A stretch of 32,000 nt of DNA, from positions 1,026,506-1,058,505 of the forward strand of contig CAZVUO010000001.1 of assembly GCA_964630235.1 (NCBI GenBank), in the 5' to 3' direction. This stretch comes from an uncultured bacterium. Its GTDB lineage: Bacteria; Oederibacteriota; JAAXVQ01; JAUVAV01. The notes beneath the pieces were generated by a model that saw only the letters and a program-made list of their open reading frames with translations, ran no database searches and was not told the origin of the DNA. Made by a program: the position numbers and the translations under genes. Below, piece after piece: positions 9,229-27,513 of the stretch; positions within the stretch are counted from its first letter, which is position 1, and each line of letters begins with the position of its first letter.

Positions 9229-10274
9229 TGAGCGCGACCACTCGCAAACCGATCGATCCGTACGCCGAAGCTGGTGTCAACATTGACGCGGGCAACGAGA
9301 CCGTGCGGCGCATCAAAGCCCACGTGCAGTCCACGCGCACCCCTGAGGTACTGGCCGATGTGGGCGCGTTCGGCGGCCTGTTCAAACTGCCGGCCAAGCT
9401 GAAGGCGCCGGTGCTGGTGGCCTCCACGGACGGCGTGGGCACCAAGATCCTGGTCGCGGCCGCGGCCAACCGCTTCGACACCATCGGACAGGACCTGGTC
9501 AACCACTGCGTGAACGACATCCTGGTGCAGGGCGCCAGGCCGCTGTTTTTTCTCGATTACTTCGCCACGGGCAAGCTCGAACCCAAGATGGTGGAGCAGA
9601 TCGTGAAAGGCCTGGCCCAGGCCTGCCGCGAGAATCACTGCGCGCTCCTGGGCGGCGAGACCGCCGAGATGCCGGGCCTGTACCTGGACCAGGATTTCGA
9701 TCTGGCCGGCACGATCGTGGGCGTGGTGGAGCGGAAGAACATCATTGACGGCGGGAGCATCAAGCCCGGCGACGCGATCATCGGCCTGCCTTCCACGGGC
9801 CTGCACACCAACGGCTACTCCCTGGCGCGCAAGATCTTCTTCTCGGACCTTATGCTCACCCCGCGTACCGTGATCCCGGAGCTGGGCCTGTCCGTGGCCG
9901 AGGCGCTCATGGCCGTGCACCGCTCTTACCTACCTGCCATCTGGCCGCTTTTCAAGAGCGTCACCATTAAAGGCCTGGCGCACATCACGGGCGGCGGGTT
10001 CCTGGAGAACATCCCGCGCATCCTGCCGCACGGTGTCTGCGCCCGCATCCGCAAGGGTTCGTGGCCAGTCCTGCCGGTCTTTTCCTTCATGGCCCAGAAG
10101 GCCAGCCTGCCGGAAACCACCCTGTACCGGACCTTCAACATGGGCATTGGCATGGTGGTGATCGTGCCCAAATCCCAGGCCGACCGCACCCTCCAGCTCC
10201 TCAAACAGAAAAAAGAAAAAGCATACCTGATCGGCGAGATCGGGAAAGGGAAACGGGAGGTCAGGCTGGTTTAA
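9228..10274 (+). CDS. purM: AIR synthetase PurM
   Basis: Lies inside ORF 8463..10274. The ATG at 9228 overlaps the purF stop (TGATG). Contains YAEAGVNIDAGN, ASTDGVGTK and GGETAEMPG. The 5' 255 codons of the long ORF overlap purF in another frame. Confidence 0.95.
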   Translation: MSATTRKPIDPYAEAGVNIDAGNETVRRIKAHVQSTRTPEVLADVGAFGGLFKLPAKLKAPVLVASTDGVGTKILVAAAANRFDTIGQDLVNHCVNDILVQGARPLFFLDYFATGKLEPKMVEQIVKGLAQACRENHCALLGGETAEMPGLYLDQDFDLAGTIVGVVERKNIIDGGSIKPGDAIIGLPSTGLHTNGYSLARKIFFSDLMLTPRTVIPELGLSVAEALMAVHRSYLPAIWPLFKSVTIKGLAHITGGGFLENIPRILPHGVCARIRKGSWPVLPVFSFMAQKASLPETTLYRTFNMGIGMVVIVPKSQADRTLQLLKQKKEKAYLIGEIGKGKREVRLV

Positions 10275-10388: not shown

Positions 10389-10418
10389 CCCCTCTCCCTT
10401 GAGGGGAGAGGGTGAGGG
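10389..10418. repeat. REP-D palindrome, left island edge
   Basis: Reads cccctctcccttgaggggagagggtgaggg. Its reverse complement, with a 1-nt indel, sits at 20197-20225. Confidence 0.75.
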
Positions 10419-11094
10419 AGAGGGTGCTGAGATTTTCCTCCCCCTTTTCTAAAGGGGGAGAAGGGGGATTACTCCTAAACCTTCAAGCTGGAGGTTGATT
10501 AAATGTTAGTAATCTCCCCTTGCCCCTCTTTAAGAAAGAGGGGTAGAGGGCGGAAGGTCTTTATCTCCTGCTCATCTGTTCCACTGCTCAACTGCTCAAC
10601 TGCTCTGCCCTGCGTACTCTGCAGGGCTTGGGGGGAGGGTGAGGGAGAGGGTGCTGAGAATTGCTTCCCCCTTTTCTAAAGGGGGAGAAGGGGGATTACT
10701 CCTAAACCTTCAAGCTGGAAGTTGATTGATTGTTAGTAATCTCCCCTTGCCCCTCTTTAAAAAAGAGGGGGAGAGGAAGGAAAGTCTTTACCTCCTGCTC
10801 ACCTGTTCAACTACTCAACTGCTCTGCCCTGCGTACTTTGCAGGGCTTGGGGGGAGGGCGAGGGAGAGGGTGCTAAGATTTTCCTCCCCCTTTTCTAAAG
10901 GGGGAGAAGGGGGATTACTCCTAAACCTTCAAGCTGGAGGTTGATTAAATGTTAGTAATCTCCCCTTGCCCCTCTTTAAGAAAGAGGGGTAGAGGGCGGA
11001 AGGTCTTTATCTCCTGCTCACCTATTCAACTACTCAACTGCTCTGCCCTGCGTACTCTGCAGGGCTTGGGGGGAGAGTGAGGGAGAGGGTGAAC
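10411..11094 (+). repeat. Three tandem ~219-227-bp composite repeat units
   Basis: The unit start GG(T/C)GAGGGAGAGGGTGCT recurs at 10411, 10638 and 10857, with a partial fourth start at 11076. Each unit holds four or five distinct hairpins, e.g. ccccctttt cta aaaggggg, cccctcttt aag aaagagggg and gccctgc gtactct gcagggc. Confidence 0.85.
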
Positions 11095-11471: not shown

Positions 11472-11664
11472 TACTATCCCCTTGCCCCGCGACAAGCGGG
11501 GAGAGGGTGGGGGTGAGGGGAACAACTGAGCAGTTATCGTGGGACCGCCGCGCATCCGCACAAATCTCCTTCTCGTCCCAACCTGCACATTTTACTGGTT
11601 ATAGGTGGAAATTGAGGGGGAGGGGAGTATAATGCCGGTTGAAAGCGTTAAAAAGGAGGGATTA

Positions 11665-12576
11665 ATGCCTGTTCCTGACTTTCAATCCTTTTTCAAACCG
11701 TTACTTGAATTAGCTGCCGACGGAAACGAACATTCTATCCAGGAAGCCAGAGAAAAAATCGCGAAGAACATGTCCCTTGATAAAGAGGCTTTAGCCGAGC
11801 TTTTACCGAGTGGTACTCAAAATAAATTTGATAACCGCGTAGCCTGGGCAAAGAGTTATTTTGTCCAGGCAAAGGTTTTGGAACCTACTCGCCGTGGTTG
11901 TTTTCGCATAACCAATAGAGGTCGTGAATTATTGGGACAAGGGCACAAGCGCATTGATGTTAAGGTGTTAGGACAATATCCTGAGTTTATTGAATTTCAC
12001 ACTGCTGGGCGGAGTTCTGCCTCGCAACCTGCAATCGTACCCGACGAAAAACAAGCCGAAACACCAGAAGAAATACTGCAAAAAGCCTATCAAAGTATTC
12101 GGGGCGAATTGGCAAGTGATATCTTGAACCGGATCAAGTCAAACACCCCCACATTTTTCGAAAATTTAGTCGTTGATTTAATGGTGGCGATGGGCTACGG
12201 CGGCTCGCGTGCTGATGCTGGGAATGCGATTGGCCGAGCTGGTGATGAAGGCATAGATGGTATCATTAAAGAGGACAAACTTGGGCTCGATACCATTTAC
12301 CTACAAGCGAAAAGATGGGATGGGTCCGTCGGCAGACCGGAAATTCATAAATTCGTAGGTGCTCTTGAAGGCAAGCGAGCTAAAAAGGGTGTGTTCATCA
12401 CAACAGGGAAATTCACGGATGAAGCCGTAAAATATGTAGGCAACATTAATCCAAAAGTGATCCTTATTGATGGCCGCGAGCTTGCCAATCTGATGATTGA
12501 TCATGACCTCGGGATTACAGTCACGGCAAAATATGAGATTAAGAGGATAGATTCGGATTATTTTGGGGAAGAATAA
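11665..12576 (+). CDS. mrr: Mrr-family type IV (modification-dependent) restriction endonuclease
   Basis: N-terminal Mrr_N-type winged helix (PDFQSFFKPLLELAADG...RVAWAKSYFVQAKVLE). C-terminal PD-(D/E)xK core (GDEGIDGIIKEDKLGLDTIYLQAKRW). The ATG at 11665 lies 5 nt after AGGAGG. In-frame ATG 11632 and GTG 11605 are also possible starts. Confidence 0.9.
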   Translation: MPVPDFQSFFKPLLELAADGNEHSIQEAREKIAKNMSLDKEALAELLPSGTQNKFDNRVAWAKSYFVQAKVLEPTRRGCFRITNRGRELLGQGHKRIDVKVLGQYPEFIEFHTAGRSSASQPAIVPDEKQAETPEEILQKAYQSIRGELASDILNRIKSNTPTFFENLVVDLMVAMGYGGSRADAGNAIGRAGDEGIDGIIKEDKLGLDTIYLQAKRWDGSVGRPEIHKFVGALEGKRAKKGVFITTGKFTDEAVKYVGNINPKVILIDGRELANLMIDHDLGITVTAKYEIKRIDSDYFGEE

Positions 12577-12663
12577 AGAGGAAATGGAGACCCCTCACTA
12601 ATTAATGAGCTAAAATCGGATTAATTTAGGTGTATCCTCGGGTTTCAATTTGTGAGGTGCAAA

Positions 12664-14358
12664 ATGAAAATAGATTCTCGTGATCGATGTATCAAGGATT
12701 TATTTCAATCAGGTTATTATAAAATACCTAGATTTCAAAGACCTTATTCTTGGGATAAAGAGAATATAATAGAATTTTGGACGGATGTTTTTATTGAAAG
12801 TGAAAAAGAATATTTTATTGGTTCGATGGTTGTATATAAAGAACGAGAATACTATGGAATAGTTGATGGACAACAGCGCCTAACAACAATAACAATGATT
12901 CTATGCGCGTTACGTAACTGTTTTAGACAAGAAGGTTACAAGGATATGGCAGATGGGATACATGCATTAATTGAAAGATCAAATATAGATAATAAGCCAC
13001 AATTTGTTTTATCGACGGAGACTTCATATCCATATTTTCAGGAAAAAATACAAAAGTATGATAATACTACATTTCACGAAAAACCAAGTGAAGAAGAAAT
13101 GAATTTATTTAATACATTTGAATTTATAAATATGTCTATTAACCAAGCGGTTGAAAATATTAAAAATGATAACAGTTTATCGGATGAGAAAAAACCAGGA
13201 GAAATCAGAAACAAATTAATAAATATGCGTGAAAATATATTGGGATTGAAACTTATATTAATAGAATTAGATAATGAAGATGATGCATATGTAATATTTG
13301 AAACCTTAAATACACGAGGTAAAGATTTAGGAGTAGGTGATTTAGTTAAGAACCATCTGGCAAAACAAATTAAACCCAAAACAGCTAATGTAGACACTCT
13401 TAAACATCAATGGGAAAAAATAATTAAAACCCTTGATGAATCACCAGCTGACTTAAATATCGATACATTTTTATTACACTATTGGTTGTCAAAACATGAC
13501 TACACTACTGAGAAAAAATTATATAGAGAAATAAGGAAAATAGTAGTAAAGGATAATGCTCAACCATTTTTAGATGAGATATCTAAGGATGCCATAACCT
13601 ATCGGGAAATAAACGAAACCAGTTATAGGAGATGGAGAATAGACCAAATAGAAATTAGGAAATCACTAGATGCCCTTTCGATATTCAAAGTTAAGCAACA
13701 GATGCCTTTGGTACTGGCAATTATGAGAGATTATCAAAATGGTGATATTAAGAAGAAACATGTTGAAAGATTATTGACAATTATTGAGAAATTCCATTTT
13801 AAATTTACAGCTATCACATCGCAAAGATCATCTGGCGGAATATCTCAAATGTATGCTATTGCCTCAAAAAAGATCAGTAATACAAAAAATATCGATCAAA
13901 AGCTTGCTGCTGTGGAAGAATTAGAGGCAAAAATAAGTGAAAAGAGTCCCACTGAGGAAGAATTTATGCTTGGATTTAAAGGTATTATATGTACTGACAA
14001 ATATATTAAACAAAAAAGACTAGTGAGATATATATTAGAAAAAGTACATTCTAATTATTATAAAGACCACGCGCCAGTTAATTATGACGAAATGACAATT
14101 GAACATATTTTACCTCAGGCAAATATAGGGTTGAAATATGATTTGAACGAAAAGGTTGTTGGACAAATCGGGAATTTGTTATTTGTGCCGCAGGATATTA
14201 ACGATGAACTCAAGAATAAAAAATATGAAGATAAATTAAAAATATTAAAAAAACATAGGTATCCATTAGATGAACGTCTTAAAAAGGAGAAAGAGTGGGA
14301 TGCTTCAACAATCAATCGTAGAACATCATTCCTATCAAAAATATTATATAACAATTAA
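12664..14358 (+). CDS. DUF262/DUF1524 (GmrSD-like) nuclease
   Basis: N-terminal DUF262 motif VDGQQRLTTI. C-terminal His-Me/DUF1524 motifs MTIEHILPQ and IGNLLFVPQDINDELKNKKY. The ATG at 12664 lies 4 nt after GAGGTG. The gene is very AT-rich compared with its neighbours. Confidence 0.88.
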   Translation: MKIDSRDRCIKDLFQSGYYKIPRFQRPYSWDKENIIEFWTDVFIESEKEYFIGSMVVYKEREYYGIVDGQQRLTTITMILCALRNCFRQEGYKDMADGIHALIERSNIDNKPQFVLSTETSYPYFQEKIQKYDNTTFHEKPSEEEMNLFNTFEFINMSINQAVENIKNDNSLSDEKKPGEIRNKLINMRENILGLKLILIELDNEDDAYVIFETLNTRGKDLGVGDLVKNHLAKQIKPKTANVDTLKHQWEKIIKTLDESPADLNIDTFLLHYWLSKHDYTTEKKLYREIRKIVVKDNAQPFLDEISKDAITYREINETSYRRWRIDQIEIRKSLDALSIFKVKQQMPLVLAIMRDYQNGDIKKKHVERLLTIIEKFHFKFTAITSQRSSGGISQMYAIASKKISNTKNIDQKLAAVEELEAKISEKSPTEEEFMLGFKGIICTDKYIKQKRLVRYILEKVHSNYYKDHAPVNYDEMTIEHILPQANIGLKYDLNEKVVGQIGNLLFVPQDINDELKNKKYEDKLKILKKHRYPLDERLKKEKEWDASTINRRTSFLSKILYNN

Positions 14359-14360
14359 TG

Positions 14361-14391
14361 GAATGGTGCCGGAGTTGGTTTGTTAGTTTAA
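14361..14391 (+). repeat. Junction motif copy a
   Basis: gaatggtgccggagttggtttgttagtttaa, starting 3 nt after the GmrSD-like stop. Followed by TAATAA and, 50 nt later, DUF1801 fragment 1. Confidence 0.85.
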
Positions 14392-14441: not shown

Positions 14442-14621
14442 ATGAATCAACCTCAGTCCTCTCCCTCCTCCTTGATCACCCGCCGCATTGCGGAACTGGG
14501 CGACTGGCGCGGACAGGTCCTGAGCCGGGTGCGGGCGCTAATCAAACAAGCTGATCCTGAGGTAATCGAAGAATGGAAGTGGAGGGGGGTTCCGGTGTGG
14601 TCCCACAATGGGAGCGTCTGA
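14442..14621 (+). pseudogene. Truncated DUF1801 (YdhG-like) gene, copy 1
   Basis: 59 codons: MNQPQSSPSSLITRRIAELGDWRGQVLSRVRALIKQADPEVIEEWKWRGVPVWSHNGSV. From memory, full-length family members continue for about 60+ more residues. The reading frame is closed by the TGA of the motif b prefix. Confidence 0.6.
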
Positions 14622-14650
14622 ATGGTGCCGGAGTTAGTTTGTTAGTTTAA
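14620..14650 (+). repeat. Junction motif copy b
   Basis: gaatggtgccggagttagtttgttagtttaa. Truncates DUF1801 copy 1 and begins composite X1. Confidence 0.85.
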
Positions 14651-14889
14651 GCGGCGATACATTTTCCTTCCCCCGCCCTCGCCCCAAGCCCTGCAACCTA
14701 CGCAGGGCAGAGCAGCTGAACAGCGGAGCAGGCGAGCAGGTGAAGAAAGATCACCACCCGCCCCCGCCAGCCATTTAAATCCAGATCGCCGCGTCCCTCT
14801 GGTCCTCGCAATGACTAATAAATATAAATCCCCTGGATTCCGGCTTAAGACATGCCGGAATGACGGCGGAGTGTGAATGGGGACGGAGT
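14624..14889 (+). repeat. 266-nt palindrome composite X1
   Basis: About 262/266 identical to 18302-18567 by eye. Made of the junction motif, an inverted copy of the tandem-unit segment (ccctcgccccaagccctgcaacctacgcagggcagagc...), REP-B (14782-14816), REP-A (14834-14865) and a terminal tgaatggggacggagt. Confidence 0.85.
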
Positions 14890-15491
14890 GGAGTTACCCC
14901 ACTTTTGTAGACACAAGAGAAGGGCAATTCAACTCATACTGTGCGGGGCTCAAATACCCCAGCGTTGAGTGCATTCTCCTGCGATTGTAAAACACTTCGA
15001 TGTATTCAAACAACTGCGCTTTTGCTTCTTCTCTGGAACCGAACCGAGCGTCGTTCTGCAACTCGGTTTTGAGCGTCTTGAAAAAGCTCTCCACGACCGC
15101 GTTGTCCCAGCAATTGCCTTTGCGGCTCATGCTGATTTGAATGTTGTACTCCTTCGCCTTGGCCTGAAAAAGGTGGCTCCGATACTGGCTCCCTTGATCC
15201 GAATGGTGGATTAAAGAGCCCTCTGGCTGCCGACTCAATATCGCCATCTCTAATGCATCCAGCACAAGGCGTTCGGTCATTTGGCCGTGCATCGACCAGC
15301 CTACGATCCTTCTCGAAAACAGGTCCATTACAATCGCCAGATGGACCCAACCCGAACCCGTCCAAAAAGCGGTCATGTCGGCCGCCCACACTTGGTTCGG
15401 TTCGGGAACGCTGAATTGCCTTTGAACCAAGTTGTTCGCTGCCGTCGCCGTCTTGAAGGCGCTTTTCCAACGCATCCGGCGGTGTGTGAAA
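14889..15491 (-). mobile_element. IS3-family insertion sequence remnant (right end plus 3' part of orfB)
   Basis: The terminal TGGAGTTACCCCACTTTTGTAGACAC at 14889 resembles IS3-family IRs (TG...CCCC...GACAC, from memory). The left part, including orfA and the 5' part of orfB, is missing and replaced at 15492 by junction motif c. Confidence 0.8.
14894..15475 (-). pseudogene. IS3-family transposase OrfB, C-terminal DDE (rve) portion
   Basis: Contains VWAADMTAF, LIHHSDQGSQY and CWDNAVVESFFKTLKTE (the DDE triad context). Only 193 aa remain, with no HTH region or orfA. Confidence 0.85.
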
Positions 15492-15569: not shown

Positions 15570-15674
15570 ATGAAACAACCAGTGGTTTCTCCCTCCGCCT
15601 TGATCACCCGCCGCATCGCTGAACTTGGAGACTGGCGCGGCCAAGTCTGCTTGGGGACGTTCTTAAAAGATTAA
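15570..15674 (+). pseudogene. Truncated DUF1801 gene, copy 2
   Basis: MKQPVVSPSALITRRIAELGDWRGQV, after which homology ends at about 15648. There a second junction-type sequence begins (ttggggacgttcttaaaagattaaatc), which recurs at 16069-16098. Confidence 0.5.
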
Positions 15675-15692: not shown

Positions 15693-15809
15693 GAACCCGC
15701 CAGTGCCAGCAAGCAAAACCTAGATTGCCGCGACCTTGTGGTCCTCGCAATGACTGCTTTGGATTTCGCCCTTCGACAGGCTCAGGGCACTACCTACTCA
15801 AGACGTCCT
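15693..15809 (+). repeat. REP-B composite copy
   Basis: gaacccgccagtgccagc...tagattgccgcg...ctcgcaatgactgctttggatttcgcccttcgacaggctcagggcactacctactcaagacgtcc. The last ~65 nt appear identical to 17750-17814. Confidence 0.75.
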
Positions 15810-15891
15810 CACCCTCTCTCTCGCCCTCTCTCCTCGAGGGAGAGGGGAATGCCTAGGTGAGGATCAAGGTAATGTCCGCAGGAGGTTCAGC

Positions 15892-15927: not shown

Positions 15928-16064
15928 GAATGGTGCCGGTGTTAGTTTATTAGTTTAAGCTTCCGAACCCGCCAGCGCCAGCAGGTAAAACCCAGATTGC
16001 CGCGTCCCTTTTTGGCCTAGCAATGACTGCTTTGGTTTTCGGCCTTCGATAGGCTCGGGGCGCT
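15928..16064 (+). repeat. Junction motif copy e (15928-15958) plus REP-B composite
   Basis: The first ~80 nt appear identical to 17660-17740 (gaatggtgccggtgttagtttattagtttaagcttccgaacccgccagcgccagcaggtaaaacccagattgccgcgtccct). Confidence 0.85.
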
Positions 16065-16246
16065 ATCTGCTAGGGACGTTCTTAAAAGAGTGAATCTGCT
16101 CTTGCCCTTTTCCCCGTTCAGGTTGCCTAAAAAAGCTATCAATGTTTTGGTGCGGACCACTAATGAGGAGGGTGTCAACAAAGTGTCCTCGAAATTGTGG
16201 AATATTAACAGCATGGTGATAATAAAGAAAATAAATAATTCTAATT

Positions 16247-16495
16247 TTACTTAATAATTGCCGCTCTGATAGTACTATAGTATGCTCCGTTAATAAATAT
16301 TCTACAAATGTAAATACCAGAAGCCATGTTTCTACAATTCCAAGTTAAGATCTCACCAGCACTAAGTTGTTGATGGAGATCAGCTACTTTTTCACCGACT
16401 GAATTATAGATTCTTAGCTGGACTTCTACGTTTTTATCCAAATCCAAAGCAAAGTTAATAACAACTGCAGCTGGGTTCGGATAAATGTGAACCGG
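16247..16495 (-). pseudogene. Fragment encoding a T9SS-type C-terminal sorting domain
   Basis: From ORF 16247..16543. HIYPNPAAVVINFALDLDKNVEVQLRIYNSVGEKVADL...SGIYICRIFINGAYYSTIRAAIIK fits the Por secretion-tail pattern. There is no upstream protein body, and the 5' side runs into a REP-B element (16520-16600). Confidence 0.55.
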
Positions 16496-16763
16496 GACGT
16501 AGATAAGTATATAAGTATATATGAACCCGCCGGTACCAGCCATTTAACCCAGATTGCCGCGTCGCCCGCTTTACAAATTCGGGGATCCTCGCAATGACTA
16601 ATAAGCGCACATTCCCTGGATTCCGGCTTAATACGCGTCGGAATGACGGACATATGAATTAATAGTCCTGCCCCATATTATACAAATGGAATAAGCCGGA
16701 ATCCGGTCAAATAAATCAGCATTAACATTCAACCCAAGCATAATTTAGGGTGGGGTGGTCTTC

Positions 16764-16802
16764 TTGACAAATTGTACAATAAGAAGTACAATAAATTGTA
16801 CA
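16764..16802 (+). promoter_or_regulatory. Sigma70-type promoter with palindromic operator for the TA operon
   Basis: TTGACA (16764-16769), a 17-nt spacer and TACAAT (16787-16792). The TTGTACAA palindrome at 16772-16779 and TTGTACA at 16796-16802 overlap the promoter. Confidence 0.7.
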
Positions 16803-16838
16803 GAAGGCGAGCATGGGGTAAAAGGGGGAATAAGTGCC

Positions 16839-17105
16839 ATGACCACATTAGCGATATCCGAAGCCCGCAAGGAGCTTAACCATCTGCCGAAACGGTTGGA
16901 AAGGGAACACGAAGCCATTGGGATCACCCAGAACGGCAAACCCGTGATGGCGATTATGGATTGGGATTTCTACGAGACGATTATGGAGTCCTTGGAAGTA
17001 TTAGGAGATGATACGCTGCTGGCTAAAGTGAAAAAGGGGCTTCAAGAGATCAACACCGGCAAGGGTATTAGTTGGGAAACGGCGAAAAAGGCGCTTAATC
17101 TTTGA
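16839..17105 (+). CDS. Phd/YefM-family type II antitoxin
   Basis: MTTLAISEARKELNHLPKRLEREHEAIGITQNGKPVMAIMDWDFYETIMESLE. An RBS (aaaggggg) lies upstream. The stop overlaps the toxin TTG start (TTGA). Confidence 0.85.
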   Translation: MTTLAISEARKELNHLPKRLEREHEAIGITQNGKPVMAIMDWDFYETIMESLEVLGDDTLLAKVKKGLQEINTGKGISWETAKKALNL

Positions 17106-17419
17106 AATACAAGGTCATCATTGCTCCTTCTGCCCTGGAAATGCTCAAACGCGTCGAAGACCGGCGCGTTCGCGAGATATTGATCCGAAGCATTGATGAC
17201 TTGGCCATAGAGCCGGGGAAGAAGGGCAAACCCCTTATGGGTTCTCTGGAAGGTTTACGAAGTATTAGAGCAGTGGGCCAGCGATACCGGATTATTTACC
17301 AAATCAAAGATGATACTGTGGAAGTTATTATAATCGCAGTAGGATTAAGAAAAGAAGGCGATTCAAAGGATATTTATAACCTGATTAAAAAGATGGTTAA
17401 ACACAATCTGTTAGGTTAG
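17102..17419 (+). CDS. RelE/ParE-family type II toxin
   Basis: 105 aa. YRIIYQIKDDTVEVIIIAVGLRKEGDSKDIY is typical of RelE/ParE toxins. Translationally coupled to the antitoxin. Confidence 0.85.
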   Translation: MKYKVIIAPSALEMLKRVEDRRVREILIRSIDDLAIEPGKKGKPLMGSLEGLRSIRAVGQRYRIIYQIKDDTVEVIIIAVGLRKEGDSKDIYNLIKKMVKHNLLG

Positions 17420-17444
17420 CAGACGCTTGGCGTAATGAGCGTAT

Positions 17445-17473
17445 TGGGGACGGAGTTAGTTTGTTCGTTTTAA
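17445..17473 (+). repeat. Junction motif copy f (GGGGACGG variant)
   Basis: tggggacggagttagtttgttcgttttaa, 26 nt after the toxin stop. The 17-mer cgtattggggacggagt (17440-17456) recurs inverted at 18832-18848. Confidence 0.8.
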
Positions 17474-17498
17474 TTTCTCTCGCCAAGTTCCCGCTGCC

Positions 17499-17658
17499 CT
17501 ACTTTCCCACCTCCACCTCCACTGGCAAAGCCTCTGCTTTTACCTCTTCCACGATCTTGCACATGACCGGACCCTGGTGATAGGACGCGTGGAGCGTGTA
17601 GCGTCCTGGCCCGCTGAAGAAGACGACCATAAAGCCTCTCAGCATTTCCTTATCCTTA
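17499..17658 (-). pseudogene. 3'-terminal fragment (last 52 codons plus stop) of a homologue of gene 20229..20978
   Basis: 160 nt aligns without gaps to 20229-20388 with 13 differences. Encodes KDKEMLRGFMVVFFSGPGRYTLHASYHQGPVMCKIVEEVKAEALPVEVEVGK*. Cut at 17658/17659 by the prefix of junction motif g. Confidence 0.85.
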
Positions 17659-17659
17659 T

Positions 17660-17814
17660 GAATGGTGCCGGTGTTAGTTTATTAGTTTAAGCTTCCGAAC
17701 CCGCCAGCGCCAGCAGGTAAAACCCAGATTGCCGCGTCCCTCTGGTCCTCGCAATGACTGCTTTGGATTTCGCCCTTCGACAGGCTCAGGGCACTACCTA
17801 CTCAAGACGTCCGC
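17660..17814 (+). repeat. Junction motif copy g (17660-17690) plus REP-B composite
   Basis: See 15928-16064 and 15693-15809 for the matching copies. Confidence 0.85.
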
Positions 17815-17869
17815 GCCCTCTCCCTCGCGCGAATATAAGGAAAAACAATAAACGTGTTTACTCTGACTT

Positions 17870-18289
17870 CTATAGGATGGGAACATACGTGCTCCAGATC
17901 TCAATAATTATCTGGCATTGAAGGCATCTCAAATAAATGGAACCGCTGCTCGGAGGTGCACACTGCTCAAATACCACATCTGAATCAACAGACACGTGCT
18001 TGCTGCCGCATTTATCACATTGAATGGTAAATTGATTCACGTTATTTATAGGAGGATAGAATATATCAAGCTCGACTCTATTTTCGCATTCCGAGCAGAC
18101 AAAATATACCCCGCCCAAATATAAAGAAGCTCCAAACGAAAAGCCAAAGTCTGAATCGAAATAAACTTTATCAGTGTTACAGCATGCACAAGTTATTGTA
18201 AAGTCGGGATGAGTCATCTTTAAGAAATCGTCTTGCTCAGGTGGATAACTAATCATATTTAAATGCTCCAACATAAGATATCTCGACAT
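17870..18289 (-). CDS. Hypothetical protein with two tandem 4-Cys zinc-ribbon-like repeats
   Basis: Internal duplication: FTITCACCNTDKVYFDSDFGF...GGVYFVCSECENRVELDIF aligns with FTIQCDKCGSKHVSVDSDVVF...GSIYLRCLQCQIIIEIW (CxxC...CxxC twice). Only 12 nt separate the ATG from junction motif h and no SD is visible. It may be 5'-truncated or not expressed. Confidence 0.5.
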   Translation of the reverse strand: MSRYLMLEHLNMISYPPEQDDFLKMTHPDFTITCACCNTDKVYFDSDFGFSFGASLYLGGVYFVCSECENRVELDIFYPPINNVNQFTIQCDKCGSKHVSVDSDVVFEQCAPPSSGSIYLRCLQCQIIIEIWSTYVPIL

Positions 18290-18301
18290 TATACGTGAAA
18301 C

Positions 18302-18328
18302 GGTGCCGGAGTTAGTTTATTAGTTTAA
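18302..18328 (+). repeat. Junction motif copy h
   Basis: ggtgccggagttagtttattagtttaa. Begins composite X2. Confidence 0.85.
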
Positions 18329-18567
18329 GTGGCGACACCTTTTCCTTCCCCCGCCCTCGCCCCAAGCCCTGCAACCTACGCAGGGCAGAGCAGCTGAACA
18401 GCGGAGCAGGCGAGCAGGTGAAGAAAGATCACCACCCGCCCCCGCCAGCCATTTAAATCCAGATCGCCGCGTCCCTCTGGTCCTCGCAATGACTAATAAA
18501 TATAAATCCCCTGGATTCCGGCTTAAGACATGCCGGAATGACGGCGGAGTGTGAATGGGGACGGAGT
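18302..18567 (+). repeat. 266-nt palindrome composite X2
   Basis: Near-identical duplicate of 14624-14889. I saw 4 differences, all within the first ~40 nt. Confidence 0.85.
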
Positions 18568-18583
18568 TAAGTTATTAACTTAA
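18553..18583 (+). repeat. Junction motif copy i (palindromic variant)
   Basis: gaatggggacggagttaagttattaacttaa. Here the AT-rich part is a perfect palindrome, TTAAGTTA-T-TAACTTAA. Confidence 0.8.
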
Positions 18584-18843
18584 GGATCAGAGCAAAATAA
18601 ACCGCCGCTGCCAGCCATTTAAATCCAGATTGCCGCGGCCCTCTGGTCCTCGCAATTGTATGCGGGACACTGGTGAATGAATAACTTAAGTACAGAAAAA
18701 ACAGCAAGGAATTATAGTTGTTGGTTAGAAGTTAAGCTACTAATTCACCAGTGTCCCCGAGAGCATAGACACGCCACCTTGATTGGTATTATACTACTTT
18801 TTCGATGAGTCCTCTTTTTTGGGGGAAGCCCACTCCGTCCCCA
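18556..18843. mobile_element. Candidate 288-nt MITE-like element with 12-nt perfect terminal inverted repeats
   Basis: TGGGGACGGAGT at 18556-18567 and its reverse complement ACTCCGTCCCCA at 18832-18843. The interior holds a REP-B piece and the long hairpin at 18664-18757. No coding capacity. Confidence 0.5.
18664..18757. repeat. Long hairpin (15-bp perfect stem, 64-nt loop)
   Basis: gggacactggtgaat (18664-18678) pairs with attcaccagtgtccc (18743-18757). The loop is AT-rich with repeated AACTTAAG/AGTTAAG words. Confidence 0.7.
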
Positions 18844-18879
18844 ATACGAGAACATATTTATCTGACGCGGGAGGCTTAA

Positions 18880-20157
18880 ATGCTATGCCTTTGGAAAGTA
18901 AAAATCAAATTCACCATCGAATTCGAGGCTGATTTAGATACCGAACCTTCCAAAATCCTGCCACCCGAATTGCTCAGCATTCCGGAATTAAAAGCCATGC
19001 TGGAATTTTTAAGCAAAATCAAAGTCCACAGTGTAATGAACAACACGCCCCTGGAAATGGAATTTGAGGTGGATAAAAACGGGCAGATCTGCGGGGAATT
19101 GAAAATCGCCAATACGTTTGACCTGGACCAGGATGCCAAAGCAGATCAATTCGAGATTTATTCGGCTACAGGAGAGTTGAAACAATCAACGGATTATACT
19201 GCGGCAGAGGTCAAGACCGGCCGGGAAATCAAGATTGAGGACGAACGTCTGGCCGCCAAAGGCGTTTCCGGGGAGCAACCGGACCGGACTTTCGGCGTGG
19301 ATTTCAATCTGGGGTTTGATGTGCCGACAAAATACACCATGAAAATACCCTTTGTGCCGCCCCCGGCTGACAGCCAATTATCCCAGACCTACAAGGACAT
19401 AGCCTATTTTGATTATGACTACACCAAAATCACCAACACGGCCGCTTCCCGGGAATTGCAGCTGCCGGATGCGGTTACTAACATATTCACCAACATTAAT
19501 GCCAGGACCTATACCGCGGAGGCGACCATCACCCGCAAGGATTGGTGGCTGCGGCAGAATATCAAAAGCAGCAGCGTGCGAACCCCGACCAGCAAAGCGC
19601 CGACCAAAGGCGGCACCTGGGTGGATCTGGACAAAGATCCCAATGCGACTTATGACCCGGAGGGCGGCGGGCTGCTTTTGCATGGAAACGTGACTTTTGA
19701 TTTGGCGGGGGCGCCGGCCAATACCATTGAACAATTCAACACGGTCCGGGATATGCGGGTTTGGAACAAAAAACCAGGCGGATCTGACCCCGGGTTCGGG
19801 GAACTGCAGCCCTGGCATGATGACTGTCTGGGTGATCAGCCCAACACATTTCGACCGAGCTGGTTTGATCTGCCGGGTAATCTTTATCCCCTGGAGCACA
19901 AGGCGGACAACCTGCCCAATGAAATCTATTTGGCGGAGTTTCTGTGGGCGGTGCAAAGTTATCCGGAATTTGGGATGCTATATTATTATGTGATGATAGA
20001 AACTAAACCGAATTATTACCGGTTGTTTGTTTCTCCGGCAGTGAATGTGAGTGAAAAACAATGGGAAGCACTGCGATCTTCAAAATCGCCCGGGAAAATA
20101 TCCGAAGACCTGTTAAAAAAACTACCCTGGAAAAAAGTGGTTCTGCCCAAAAAATAA
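18880..20157 (+). CDS. Hypothetical 425-aa protein, no recognisable domain
   Basis: The ATG lies 5 nt after GGGAGG (18869-18874). The long ORF shows no signal peptide, TM segment or catalytic motif that I can recognise. It sits between repeat DNA and the REP-D hairpin. Confidence 0.7.
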   Translation: MLCLWKVKIKFTIEFEADLDTEPSKILPPELLSIPELKAMLEFLSKIKVHSVMNNTPLEMEFEVDKNGQICGELKIANTFDLDQDAKADQFEIYSATGELKQSTDYTAAEVKTGREIKIEDERLAAKGVSGEQPDRTFGVDFNLGFDVPTKYTMKIPFVPPPADSQLSQTYKDIAYFDYDYTKITNTAASRELQLPDAVTNIFTNINARTYTAEATITRKDWWLRQNIKSSSVRTPTSKAPTKGGTWVDLDKDPNATYDPEGGGLLLHGNVTFDLAGAPANTIEQFNTVRDMRVWNKKPGGSDPGFGELQPWHDDCLGDQPNTFRPSWFDLPGNLYPLEHKADNLPNEIYLAEFLWAVQSYPEFGMLYYYVMIETKPNYYRLFVSPAVNVSEKQWEALRSSKSPGKISEDLLKKLPWKKVVLPKK

Positions 20158-20196
20158 ATAGGCCCGAAATGCAGTGAATAATTGATGATGTGTCCA

Positions 20197-20225
20197 CCCT
20201 CACCCTCTCCCTCAAGGGAGAGGGG
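20197..20225. repeat. REP-D palindrome, right island edge; probable bidirectional terminator
   Basis: ccctcaccctctccctcaagggagagggg, with a 9-bp stem ccctctccc/gggagaggg. It lies between the convergent genes ending at 20157 and 20229 and is the inverted copy of 10389-10418. Confidence 0.7.
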
Positions 20226-20228
20226 CGC

Positions 20229-20978
20229 TTATTTTCCCACCTCCACCTCCACTGGCAAAGCCTCTGCTTTTACCTCTTCCACGATCTTGCACATGACCGG
20301 GGTTTGGTGATAGGAAGCATGCAAAGTGTATCGGCCTGGCCCGCTGAAGAAGACGACCATAAAGCCTCTCAGCATTTCCTTATCCTTAATATGATTTTTG
20401 ATCCACGCGCGGTTGACGCCAAAGACCAGTATGGATGACCGCTCGATCTCGGGAATGGTCTTGAGCTCGTCCATGCCATCTGGGTCCAGGGTCGCGACTG
20501 ACAACTGTTCGGGTTTCAGCTCGGAATTAGGGACCCAGCAGGCCTGCAAGGCCGTAACGTGCCCGGCCCCTGGCTTAAGCACCTTGCCGGCCTTGCGCAC
20601 CGCGTCCTCGTTCACCGGCTCGGCTGGCGGTCCATAGTAAGTGCGCAGTTCGTGGCCAGACGCGCTCTGGCCCTGGGCCTGGGGTTTGAACTTGAGGTCC
20701 CATTCCATGCCCATGCTGGCCACTGAGATCTGCCAGGACAAGGCAGTATAGGCCGGGTAGATCGTGACCGGCAGGGGCGAGTTATTGGTCAGGCGCAAAC
20801 GGATGGTGACATCGCGCATTTTATGGCTGGGCCACAGCGCTGGTTCGATCTCGGCTTCAAGCAGGATGTTCATGGCGTTTCCTTTCTCCGCCGCCGAAAC
20901 AGCGGGCGCGCAGGCCGTAAAGGAAACAAGAAGAACGCCTGCGCCAAAATACCGTATCACGTCCAGCAATGCTCCCAC
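20229..20978 (-). CDS. Hypothetical secreted protein / possible lipoprotein
   Basis: N-terminal signal-like segment RYFGAGVLLVSFTACAPAVSAAE (possible lipobox FTAC). GGAGG-rich RBS. The start is ambiguous (GTG 20978 or TTG 20969). No recognisable domain. Confidence 0.72.
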   Translation of the reverse strand: MGALLDVIRYFGAGVLLVSFTACAPAVSAAEKGNAMNILLEAEIEPALWPSHKMRDVTIRLRLTNNSPLPVTIYPAYTALSWQISVASMGMEWDLKFKPQAQGQSASGHELRTYYGPPAEPVNEDAVRKAGKVLKPGAGHVTALQACWVPNSELKPEQLSVATLDPDGMDELKTIPEIERSSILVFGVNRAWIKNHIKDKEMLRGFMVVFFSGPGRYTLHASYHQTPVMCKIVEEVKAEALPVEVEVGK

Positions 20979-21287
20979 CTCCTCATCCTTCGCGTTCTGC
21001 GGGCACCCAAGTCAATTCTAGGACGATAAAACCGGGAAAAACAGGGAAAATTCAATTTTTCCAGGATGGCGCCGATTGTCTGCCCAGTGCCTAAAAAAAT
21101 CCGCTTTTGGAACTGCCTGGAAAATCAGCCTGTTTTAAAGCCGGTTCGCGTAAAAAAAAACGATTTGCAGCTCCCTCGAATATTCCCCTTCAAATTCAAC
21201 CCTTTTTCAACCCCGTCCAGCCGCCTGGACCGCCATTTTTTCTGAAACCTTTTTCGCCTGGCGGTGTCACACTTTACGATTGACCTT

Positions 21288-25929: not shown

Positions 25930-27513
25930 ATGGTGAAAATCAAACGGGCATTGATCAGTGTATCGGACAAAACCGGGATCGTGGAGCTGGGCCAGGGCTT
26001 GATCCGGCACGGCGTGGAGATCCTGTCCACCGGCGGCACGGCCAAGGCGCTGAAGGAGGCCGGCCTCAAGGTGAAGGACGTTTCCGAGGTCACGGGCTTT
26101 CCGGAAATGATGGACGGGCGGGTGAAGACCTTGCACCCCAAGATCCACGGCGGCCTGCTGGCCCTGCGCGACAACCCGGACCACATGCGCCAGCTGGCGG
26201 AGCAGAAGATCGAGCCCATTGACATGGTGGTCGTGAACCTGTACCCCTTCGCCCGCACCGTGGCCAAGCCCGGCGTGCACCTGGAGGAGGCCATCGAGAA
26301 CATTGACATCGGCGGGCCTTCGATGATCCGCTCGGCCTCCAAAAACTTCCGCAGCGTGGCCGTGGTGGTGAACCCGGCCCGCTACGCGGCCCTGCTCGCG
26401 GAGATGGACCAGCAGGAAGGAGAGGTGGGCGACGACACCCTGAAGCAGCTCGCGGTGGAGGCCTTCGACCACACCGCGGAGTATGACGCCGGCATCCACC
26501 GCTACCTGTTGGAGAAGCTCGGCGCCGAGGCGGGACCCTTCCCGGAGACCATTCGCTTTACCTTTCACCGGCAGCAGGCTCTGCGTTACGGCGAGAATCC
26601 GCACCAGCAGGCCGCCTGGTACCGCCAGGCCGCCCTGAACGCGCCGGACGCCGAGGCCACGCTCAGCTCGGCCAAGCAGCTGCAGGGCAAGGAACTGTCG
26701 TTCAACAACCTGCTCGACCTGCACGCGGCCCTGGAGCCGGTGAAGGAATTCGCGGAGCCCGCGGCCTGCATCATCAAGCACACCAATCCCTGCGGCCTGG
26801 CCATCGGCGCGGACATCGCCGAGGCCTACCGCAAGGCCTACCACGCGGACCCCCTGTCCGCCTACGGGGGCATCGTGGGCCTGAACCGGCCGCTGAACCG
26901 GGCCGTGGCCGAGCTCATGCAGGATATCTTCCTGGAGTGCGTCATCGCGCCCGGGTTCGAGCCCGATGCCCTGGAGCTGCTGCGCGCCAAGAAGAACCTG
27001 CGCCTGCTCGAGATCGGCGCCCTGGCCCCGGCCTCCGGCGCGCTCCTGTCCTGGCAGACCATGGACCTGAAGCGCGTGTCCGGCGGCCTCCTGCTCCAGG
27101 AGCGGGACCGCGGCCAGGTCAAGCCCGACGGCCTGAAGGTGGTCAGCCAGCAGCAGCCCACGGCCGAACAGATGCGGGACCTGCTCTTCGGCTGGCAGGT
27201 GTGCAAGCACGTCAAGTCCAACGCCATTGTCCTGGTCCATCACGGCGCCACGGTGGGCGTAGGGCCGGGGCAGACCAACCGCGTGGGCGCCGCGGAGATC
27301 GCGGTGCGCCAGGCCGGGGAGCGGGCCCGGGGCGCGGTCGTGGCCTCGGACGCCTATTTCCCGTTCCGCGACGGGGTGGACCTGCTCGCCAAGGCGGGAG
27401 TTTCGGCCGTGATCCAGCCCGGCGGGTCGGTCAGGGACGAGGAAGTCATCGCCGCGGCCAACGAACACAAGCTGCCCATGGTGTTCACCGGCATGCGGCA
27501 TTTCAAACACTAA
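25930..27513 (+). CDS. purH: Bifunctional AICAR transformylase / IMP cyclohydrolase PurH
   Basis: N-terminal MGS-like domain ([28 protein letters not shown]). C-terminal AICARFT domain ([24 protein letters not shown] end). Confidence 0.95.

Follow-up and report, generated by a model that had tools for sequence, protein, structure and literature searches.

A displaced gene end at the border of a variable island in an uncultured bacterium of the Oederibacteriota

The stretch of DNA analysed here, referred to as the window, comprises 32,000 nucleotides (nt) of contig CAZVUO010000001.1 (assembly GCA_964630235.1, positions 1,026,506 to 1,058,505 of the forward strand) from an uncultured bacterium of the Oederibacteriota; all positions given below are those of the window. 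Its core has a GC (guanine plus cytosine) content of about 67%; between about 10.3 and 20.2 kb it gives way to DNA of 27-55% GC. To the left of this island lie purL-, purF- and purM-type genes, ending at 10274, and to its right a gene for a secreted or lipoprotein-like protein, here called the border gene, together with genes encoding a B-box membrane protein, an ArfB-like RF-1 domain protein and a response regulator. The island contains type IV restriction genes of the Mrr and GmrSD types, a Phd/ParE toxin-antitoxin pair, two 5' fragments of DUF1801 genes and IS3 remnants. Its low GC content and the presence of restriction genes, a toxin-antitoxin pair, a truncated IS3 and gene fragments suggest that it is foreign and rearranged. 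The last 160 nt of the border gene occur a second time, as a fragment inside the island, about 2.7 kb from the intact gene. This displaced gene end is a real feature and most likely has an ordinary explanation, as the scar of an ordinary kind of rearrangement. The features concerned are the following.

17499-17658, minus strand: left copy, a dead 3' end (52 codons plus TAG) of a putative mosaic allele; a 48-residue open reading frame (P0017) is called here on the source contig
17571-17604 (corresponding to 20301-20334), no strand: divergent tract with 11 of the 13 differences, flanked by putative breakpoints inside identical blocks
20229-20978, minus strand: intact 249-residue gene whose product has a signal or lipoprotein-like N-terminus; the right copy is the terminal 160 nt of the gene (20229-20388)

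The window was compared with public assemblies, short-read (Logan) contigs, species-representative genomes, metagenome and viral contigs and a collection of 15 billion protein sequences. Families of open reading frames (ORFs) were sought in Pfam, NCBIfam, PADLOC and PHROGs.

A gap-free alignment of the two copies, 17499-17658 and 20229-20388, extends over 160 nt and shows 13 differences (92% identity). The right copy constitutes the last 52 codons and the stop codon of the ORF at 20229-20978. Both copies are on the minus strand. The fragment shares the orientation of the full gene, is located downstream of it and has no promoter. In the left copy the differing positions are 17499, 17502, 17571-17574, 17586, 17589, 17592, 17594, 17595, 17601 and 17604. 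Eleven of them fall within 34 nt, for which differences placed at random along the 160-nt repeat give p ~5e-6, and this span is bordered by identical runs of 68 nt and 54 nt. The alignment thus reproduces the length, the number of differences and the clustering in the middle that had been described in the original prediction, made from the sequence alone. Nine of the differences are synonymous and are spread over eight sense codons (18, 19, 21, 22 twice, 23, 24, 28 and 52), one changes the stop codon (TAG in the left copy, TAA in the right copy) and three fall in a single codon, GGT (Gly) on the left and ACC (Thr) on the right. The three-change codon had been recognized correctly, whereas the ten synonymous changes counted previously are nine unless the stop codon is included. 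The encoded C-termini accordingly differ by a single amino acid. The strong synonymous bias indicates that the divergence arose while both sequences belonged to working genes. Identity stops exactly at 17658/20388, and at 17659 begins a recurrent 33-nt module, module g, so that the left copy is indeed severed at this junction motif, as had been predicted.

In the sense of the gene, the differing sites read A,C,G,C,C,C,G,G,G,G,T,G,G in the left copy and C,A,T,T,G,T,T,A,A,C,C,A,A in the right copy. A diversity-generating retroelement was considered and rejected, since the differences do not lie at template adenines and the window contains no reverse transcriptase.

The border gene encodes 249 residues if translated from its GTG codon and 214 if Met36 is taken as the start, as it is in the ORF call of the source contig; its GC content at third codon positions is 0.71. 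It has 12 homologues, the closest named one in a genome of candidate division FCPU426; it matched no family in Pfam, NCBIfam or PADLOC and showed no toxin features. Two distant FCPU426-type genomes (L001, L002), which provided the outgroup alleles, have one copy of the gene, flanked left and right by other genes. Much closer is a sister lineage (P0001, P0015, L004, L016-L025). Each of L001, L002 and L016-L025 contains a single gene followed by unrelated downstream DNA, which identifies the gene as the border of the island. In the sister lineage the DNA directly after the stop codon is made up of repetitive extragenic palindromic (REP) elements and a 348-residue gene, unrelated to the 350-residue ORF of the window; neither module g nor the toxin-antitoxin pair was found at its border locus.

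The upstream B-box gene of the sister lineage is about 99-100% identical to that of the window over most of its length, and the border gene 91%. This divergence is unevenly distributed. In a comparison of window positions 20229-21000 with L016, L018 and L026, 40-nt windows alternate between 97-100% and 78-85% identity, and divergence increases toward the 3' end of the gene. A further allele, P0018/L026, is recombinant: about 140 codons at its 5' end are window-like and the 3' remainder is sister-like. As judged from these alignments, the border gene appears to be a recombination-active island border with patchwork alleles.

A three-way comparison of the left copy, the right copy and the sister allele, with positions counted in the sense of the gene, revealed the ancestry of the fragment. 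At 13 sites (positions 7-34 and 112-130) the left and right copies agree and the sister allele differs. At 10 sites (positions 55-87) the left copy agrees with the sister allele and the right copy differs, and at site 160, in the stop codon, the left copy again groups with the sister allele. In its middle tract the left copy equals the sister allele apart from 1 nt, and both have the Gly codon, the TAG stop and GCAGCG after the stop. The left fragment is therefore best read as a third, mosaic allele. This site pattern places the probable breakpoints inside the identical blocks, where the original prediction had proposed to look for them. Its view of the fragment as a displaced or allelic 3' end agrees with the nearly exclusively synonymous differences and with the sister-like middle tract, TAG codon and first bases of the 3' flank.

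Based on these observations, the left copy is probably, at somewhat better than even chances, a relic allelic gene end left by replacement of the island border through one homologous joint and one joint bounded by module g, with additional exchange of short tracts. The border gene forms the right-hand border of a variable, repeat-rich, low-GC island of about 10 kb between purM and the border gene. DNA led by module g would have been joined to the gene 160 nt before its end, thereby severing the resident gene, and an intact allele, along with the REP-D hairpin and a 425-residue gene, would have been installed 2.57 kb to the right by homologous recombination within the gene or its conserved upstream flank. 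Short-tract recombination would make the alleles patchworks, which would explain why the copies are identical over 54 and 68 nt yet have 11 differences within 34 nt. The order of these events and the way in which the g-bounded joint was made are what we infer. The left fragment is non-functional, with no function of its own. As a general idea, the combination of one homologous with one non-homologous, motif-bounded crossover, which the original prediction had offered as one of two possibilities, still fits best.

Four rival explanations were weighed: in descending order, a local duplication followed by import of a patch, an assembly chimera, an integrative element and a functional conversion cassette. 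According to the first, 160 nt were duplicated locally at the insertion, for example by a long staggered break, by replication template switching or by unequal exchange between sister chromosomes at dispersed repeats; the copies would at first have been identical, and the dead left copy would later have taken up a tract of 33-76 nt from the sister lineage. This is unlikely, and it is the rival with the most in its favour. The identical flanks of the two copies and the single-nucleotide distance of the left middle tract from the sister allele are consistent with it, as are two Logan contigs, L009 and L012, which show the left locus including the TAG end with a right-type middle tract and are otherwise 100% identical to the window over 1.2-1.7 kb. 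These contigs could equally reflect gene conversion between the copies or the collapse of an assembly bubble, and in the latter case they would be artefacts. Moreover, the two differences at the stop codon persist in both of them, which means that the copies are not identical at their outer end. The state of the right copy in the middle tract is shared with the outgroup at five (L002) or six (L001) of the 10 sites, and a patch introduced into a dead fragment is no more parsimonious than one introduced into a live gene.

Independent assemblies bear on the reality of the junctions. The transition from the left flank through the left copy into module g was seen in L009, and that from the left flank into the left copy in L010-L012. 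On the other side, the 425-residue gene, REP-D and the right copy are joined in L005, L027 and L028, and the gene body and the right copy in L006. Logan contigs match the window exactly over 18538-20262 (L005, 13 samples), 22914-20359 (L006, 11 samples) and, at the left locus, 16140-17601 and 16348-17658 (L010, L011). They break at the edges of the repeat, as is expected if both copies are present. The only complete record of the window-type gene in the protein collection stems from the source contig, and the gene is never found whole in short-read assemblies, in contrast to the sister allele, which is assembled whole on more than 18 contigs; this fits a duplicated end that is fixed in this lineage. 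An invariant 23-mer of the gene had no matches in metagenome contigs.

It is quite improbable that the contig is instead a chimera in which two co-occurring strains, one with the g-cut gene and the other with the 425-residue gene and the intact border gene, were joined through shared repeats. In favour of it, the sequence comes from a metagenome-assembled genome, the interval abounds in repeats of the kind at which assemblers change paths, and none of the independent contigs covers both copies. However, both types of junction occur in the same samples (L005 and L008 in SRR29900433; L011 and L029 in DRR381270), and the contigs of the gene body, the 425-residue gene and the left locus (L010, L011) match the window at 100%. 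The length of the source contig, 1,187,144 bp, suggests long reads, which would be able to cover 2.7 kb.

A silent cassette, in which the fragment would serve as a gene-conversion donor that varies the C-terminus of a surface protein, is a very remote prospect. The gene is patchily mosaic between strains and the left locus may carry either middle tract, as a donor cassette would allow; however, the product of such conversion would be a single amino acid exchange, the remaining changes being synonymous, and there is only one fragment, which sits among obviously dead fragments cut by the same module.

The 2.57 kb between the copies, 17659-20228, contain the following features.

17659-17692, plus strand: module g7, which cuts the left copy; no secondary structure
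17693-17830, plus strand: REP-like modules (REP-B of the original prediction); 17697-17828 are 92% identical to 15693-15824
17870-18289, minus strand: 139-residue ORF with four CxxC pairs, 39% GC, cut upstream by g8, 8 nt before its ATG
18298-18574, plus strand: module g8 and composite X2 (276 nt), 97% identical to 14621-14896
18553-18757, plus strand: module g9, a REP module (18602-18656) and a 26-nt inverted repeat (18664-18757)
18758-18849, minus strand: left-end remnant of an IS3-family element, aligned to the inverted repeats of a related IS3 (L032)
18861-20211, plus strand: 425-residue gene (ORF 18880-20157) with minimal flanks, 97.2% identical to L030 and L031
20196-20228, no strand: REP-D hairpin between the 425-residue gene and the stop codon of the border gene, z = -2.9

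Positions 17660-17741, which include g7 and REP modules, are 100% identical to 15928-16009, and in L027 and L028 the region corresponding to 18553-18757 has an additional REP piece of 36 nt. The 139-residue ORF had no homologue, was not called as a gene in the protein collection and gave only two marginal PHROGs matches (E 0.003 or worse), both of unknown function, so that its status as a gene appears not to be supported. The 425-residue ORF, by contrast, is a real gene: its codons differ from those of L030 by 28 synonymous and 7 non-synonymous changes. It had been regarded as an orphan, a label withdrawn here, since an exhaustive profile-free search retrieved about 50 distant relatives with 25-35% identity and a conserved C-terminal region. 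No Pfam domain was found in these relatives. The family is uncharacterised and has the invariant residues H268, N270, R290, D315, D330 and P332. An alignment-based AlphaFold model is all-beta, with a predicted local distance difference test score (pLDDT) of 85.8 and a predicted template modelling score (pTM) of 0.83, and had no fold match in the PDB or among viral models; a model from the single sequence was useless (pLDDT 33.7). In L030 and L031 the 425-residue gene has different DNA on both sides, and it is followed by module g, which cuts the REP-D hairpin, instead of by the border gene.

Taken together, the interval is a patchwork of at least five independent pieces, several of them duplicated elsewhere in the island, and not a unit. 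It encodes no recombinase, neither of its two ORFs has a significant match in Pfam, NCBIfam, PADLOC or PHROGs, and no match to it was found in plasmid or phage collections or in viral contigs. The sole recombinase-like gene of the window is the truncated IS3 transposase gene at 14894-15475. These properties weigh strongly against an integrative element extending over 17659-20228 (or 17499-20228) that would target the 3' end of the gene and supply a replacement end, the 160-nt copies being its attL and attR. Direct repeats of a gene end that bracket lower-GC, foreign-looking DNA are what such an element would leave, and the identical blocks could hold a crossover core. Of the four features of integrative elements considered, however, these repeats are the only one present; a recombinase, a discrete unit and an empty site are missing. 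The left end of the supposed element is the module that marks eight other, unrelated junctions, and the 425-residue gene occurs elsewhere with other flanks. An element of this kind, as put forward in the original prediction, is accordingly most improbable, and the search that it had suggested for the 2.57-kb segment as a discrete unit gave no match in plasmids or phages. The comparison with related genomes that it had suggested was partly successful: variants with a single gene and without 17659-20228 exist, but the left flank is likewise absent from the relatives that lack the interval, so that none of them represents a true empty site.

Several points weigh against the replacement of the island border by one homologous and one g-bounded joint. 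No genome was found in which the left flank continues into a full-length gene, that is, a true empty site, and a hypothetical full-length allele with a left-type end was absent by exact look-up in the protein collection. If L009 and L012 are real, they suggest that the copies may once have been identical. Finally, no tested mechanism explains a joint located exactly at the edge of module g.

Module g is a 33-nt sequence, GAATGGTGCCGGAGTTAGTTTATTAGTTTAA, which is not palindromic. It begins at 17659 as TGAATGGTGCCGGTGTTAGTTTATTAGTTTAA and can be written TGAATGGTGCCGG(T/A)GTTAGTTTATTAGTTTAA. Seven copies with up to three mismatches and two variants, all on the plus strand, lie between 14361 and 18587, where zero are expected. 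The copies and the associated elements are these.

Starts at 14361, 14620, 15488, 15892, 15928, 17442, 17660, 18298 and 18553, plus strand: module g copies; also L030:1527-1559
17442-17476, plus strand: variant module g6, 22 nt beyond the stop codon of the left copy, after the ParE toxin gene
14873-15487, minus strand: truncated IS3 inserted in a g-like module (14873-14888), with its end TGGAGTTACCCC at 14889 and the other side cut by module g3

The module holds a direct repeat of TTAGTTTA and does not fold (minimum free energy 0). Six copies are followed after 41-209 nt by the same type of REP, and to the left of each copy lies a different cut sequence. Among these left neighbours are the GmrSD stop codon, a DUF1801 gene that breaks off at codon 59, the IS3 transposase gene with its break in the N-terminal part, the upstream side of the 139-residue ORF and the border gene cut 160 nt from its end. 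The two DUF1801 5' fragments (14442-14620 and 15570-15647) are 80% alike; module g lies upstream of each at the same distance, and the first fragment takes its stop codon from the next module g. No exact match to the module was found in species-representative genomes and none in metagenome or viral contigs; a degenerate scan returned only three matches, which are chance coding hits. In the collections searched, the module is confined to this lineage.

Of the truncated IS3, the C-terminal part of the transposase is encoded at 14894-15475. The left-end remnant has the inverted repeat TGGGCTTCCCCC on the minus strand with its outer end at 18832 and an ATG about 64 nt inside, and it adjoins an inverted half of a g-like module at 18833-18849. 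The inverted repeats of the related IS3 (L032), whose transposase is 59.5% identical, start with TGAGCTTCCCCC. At 14873-14900 and 18821-18849 an IS3-family element has thus inserted twice at the same position of a g-like module, after its first half, GGGGACGGAG, with one type of end at each place, which suggests sequence-specific targeting of the module.

Three identities of module g were rejected. It is not an inverted repeat of the IS3, since the IS3 ends of the window (TGGAGTTACCCC and TGGGCTTCCCCC) lie inside g-like sequence, which makes the g-like module the flank or the insertion target. It is not an integron attC site, since it does not fold, its repeat of TTAGTTTA is direct rather than a dyad and there is no IntI or tyrosine recombinase. 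A dif/Xer-type site was rejected by eye against the usual layout of dif, because the internal repeat is direct where a dyad would be required. It is conceivable, if doubtful, that module g is the recognition or cleavage site of an enzyme that acts in trans and joins g-led segments to arbitrary targets. The island may then be an array of captured, cut segments in one orientation, among them the restriction genes, the toxin-antitoxin pair, the gene fragments and the 425-residue gene, and the displaced gene end would be one product of the process. Such an array may represent a system of cassette accretion that differs from integrons in lacking both a palindromic site and a nearby IntI. Within the locus, module g alone is left without an explanation and could open something new; if it turned out to be a joint directed by an enzyme, this would represent a new way in which DNA is accreted.

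Other parts of the window are of interest in their own right. The adjacent Mrr-type (a 323-residue ORF) and GmrSD-type genes at 11605-14358, both for type IV, modification-dependent restriction, have 45% and 30% GC in a genome of 67% GC, and this region has the look of a foreign defence island. At 10403-11091 a unit of 219 nt built from REP-like modules is repeated in tandem 3.1 times (91% match), and parts of it recur inverted at 14669-14743 and 18347-18421. A 98-residue fragment at 16247-16543 (37% GC) contains a C-terminal sorting domain of type IX secretion, a hallmark of the Bacteroidota, which hints at the donor of part of the island. Over the window as a whole (1-32000), the gene orientations are convergent toward the island, and at about 10 kb the cumulative GC skew stops falling and begins to rise, in a window too short for this to be read as a replication landmark. 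No known RNA families or tRNA were found at the junctions. ARAGORN reported a 95-nt minus-strand tRNA-Asp at 26754-26848, where long ORFs run through DNA of 67% GC in both directions; this is probably a false positive.

In an uncultured lineage related to candidate division FCPU426, the locus provides an example of a variable, defence-type island whose border gene keeps the fossil of an earlier allele, and of short recombination tracts that make island border genes mosaic. The fragment can also serve as a marker by which one rearrangement is dated and given a direction, and it indicates that turnover of the island proceeds here by piecewise replacement rather than by integration of whole elements.

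Border replacement of this type resembles homology-facilitated illegitimate recombination, which has been described for transformation in Acinetobacter, Pseudomonas stutzeri and Streptococcus pneumoniae and has been invoked for the displaced effector ends of type VI secretion system (T6SS) clusters of Vibrio cholerae (PMC5361080; PMC3240628). As in that process, a conserved gene would serve as the homologous anchor on one side and a non-homologous joint would lie on the other; the old DNA would have been pushed outward as a remnant, and the new intact copy lies by the conserved flank. On the homologous side, the conservation of the gene and its upstream flank, together with their mosaic structure among strains, is compatible with this process. 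On the other side, the joint at 17658/17659 is placed precisely at the boundary of a module found at nine or more junctions, which argues against a joint formed at random microhomology and suggests an additional, sequence-directed step.

Arrays of orphan 3' fragments also lie downstream of rhs, cdiA and T6SS effector genes (PMC5361080). As in those arrays, the fragment studied here is promoter-less, has the orientation of the full gene and follows it downstream, with foreign DNA between the two. The fragments of those arrays encode different toxin domains and are accompanied by cognate immunity genes, whereas the displaced end described here encodes the same C-terminus except for one residue; no match to a toxin or immunity family was found, and no immunity-like partner is evident at the locus. 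The duplication of attL and attR by integrative elements offers a further parallel, in that an imperfect direct repeat of a gene 3' end brackets foreign DNA and the gene remains intact. It differs from the present locus, which has no integrase, discrete unit or empty site and in which one boundary module is common to many junctions.

The island as a mosaic of short repeated modules is reminiscent of clusters of REP and bacterial interspersed mosaic elements (BIMEs). Module g itself departs from REP in that it is not palindromic, is found only in the island, has a single orientation and abuts cut coding sequences, which REP elements normally do not. The IS3-family element of the island, which hit g-like modules twice at the same position, finds its counterpart in IS1397 and ISKpn1, members of the same family that target REP elements.

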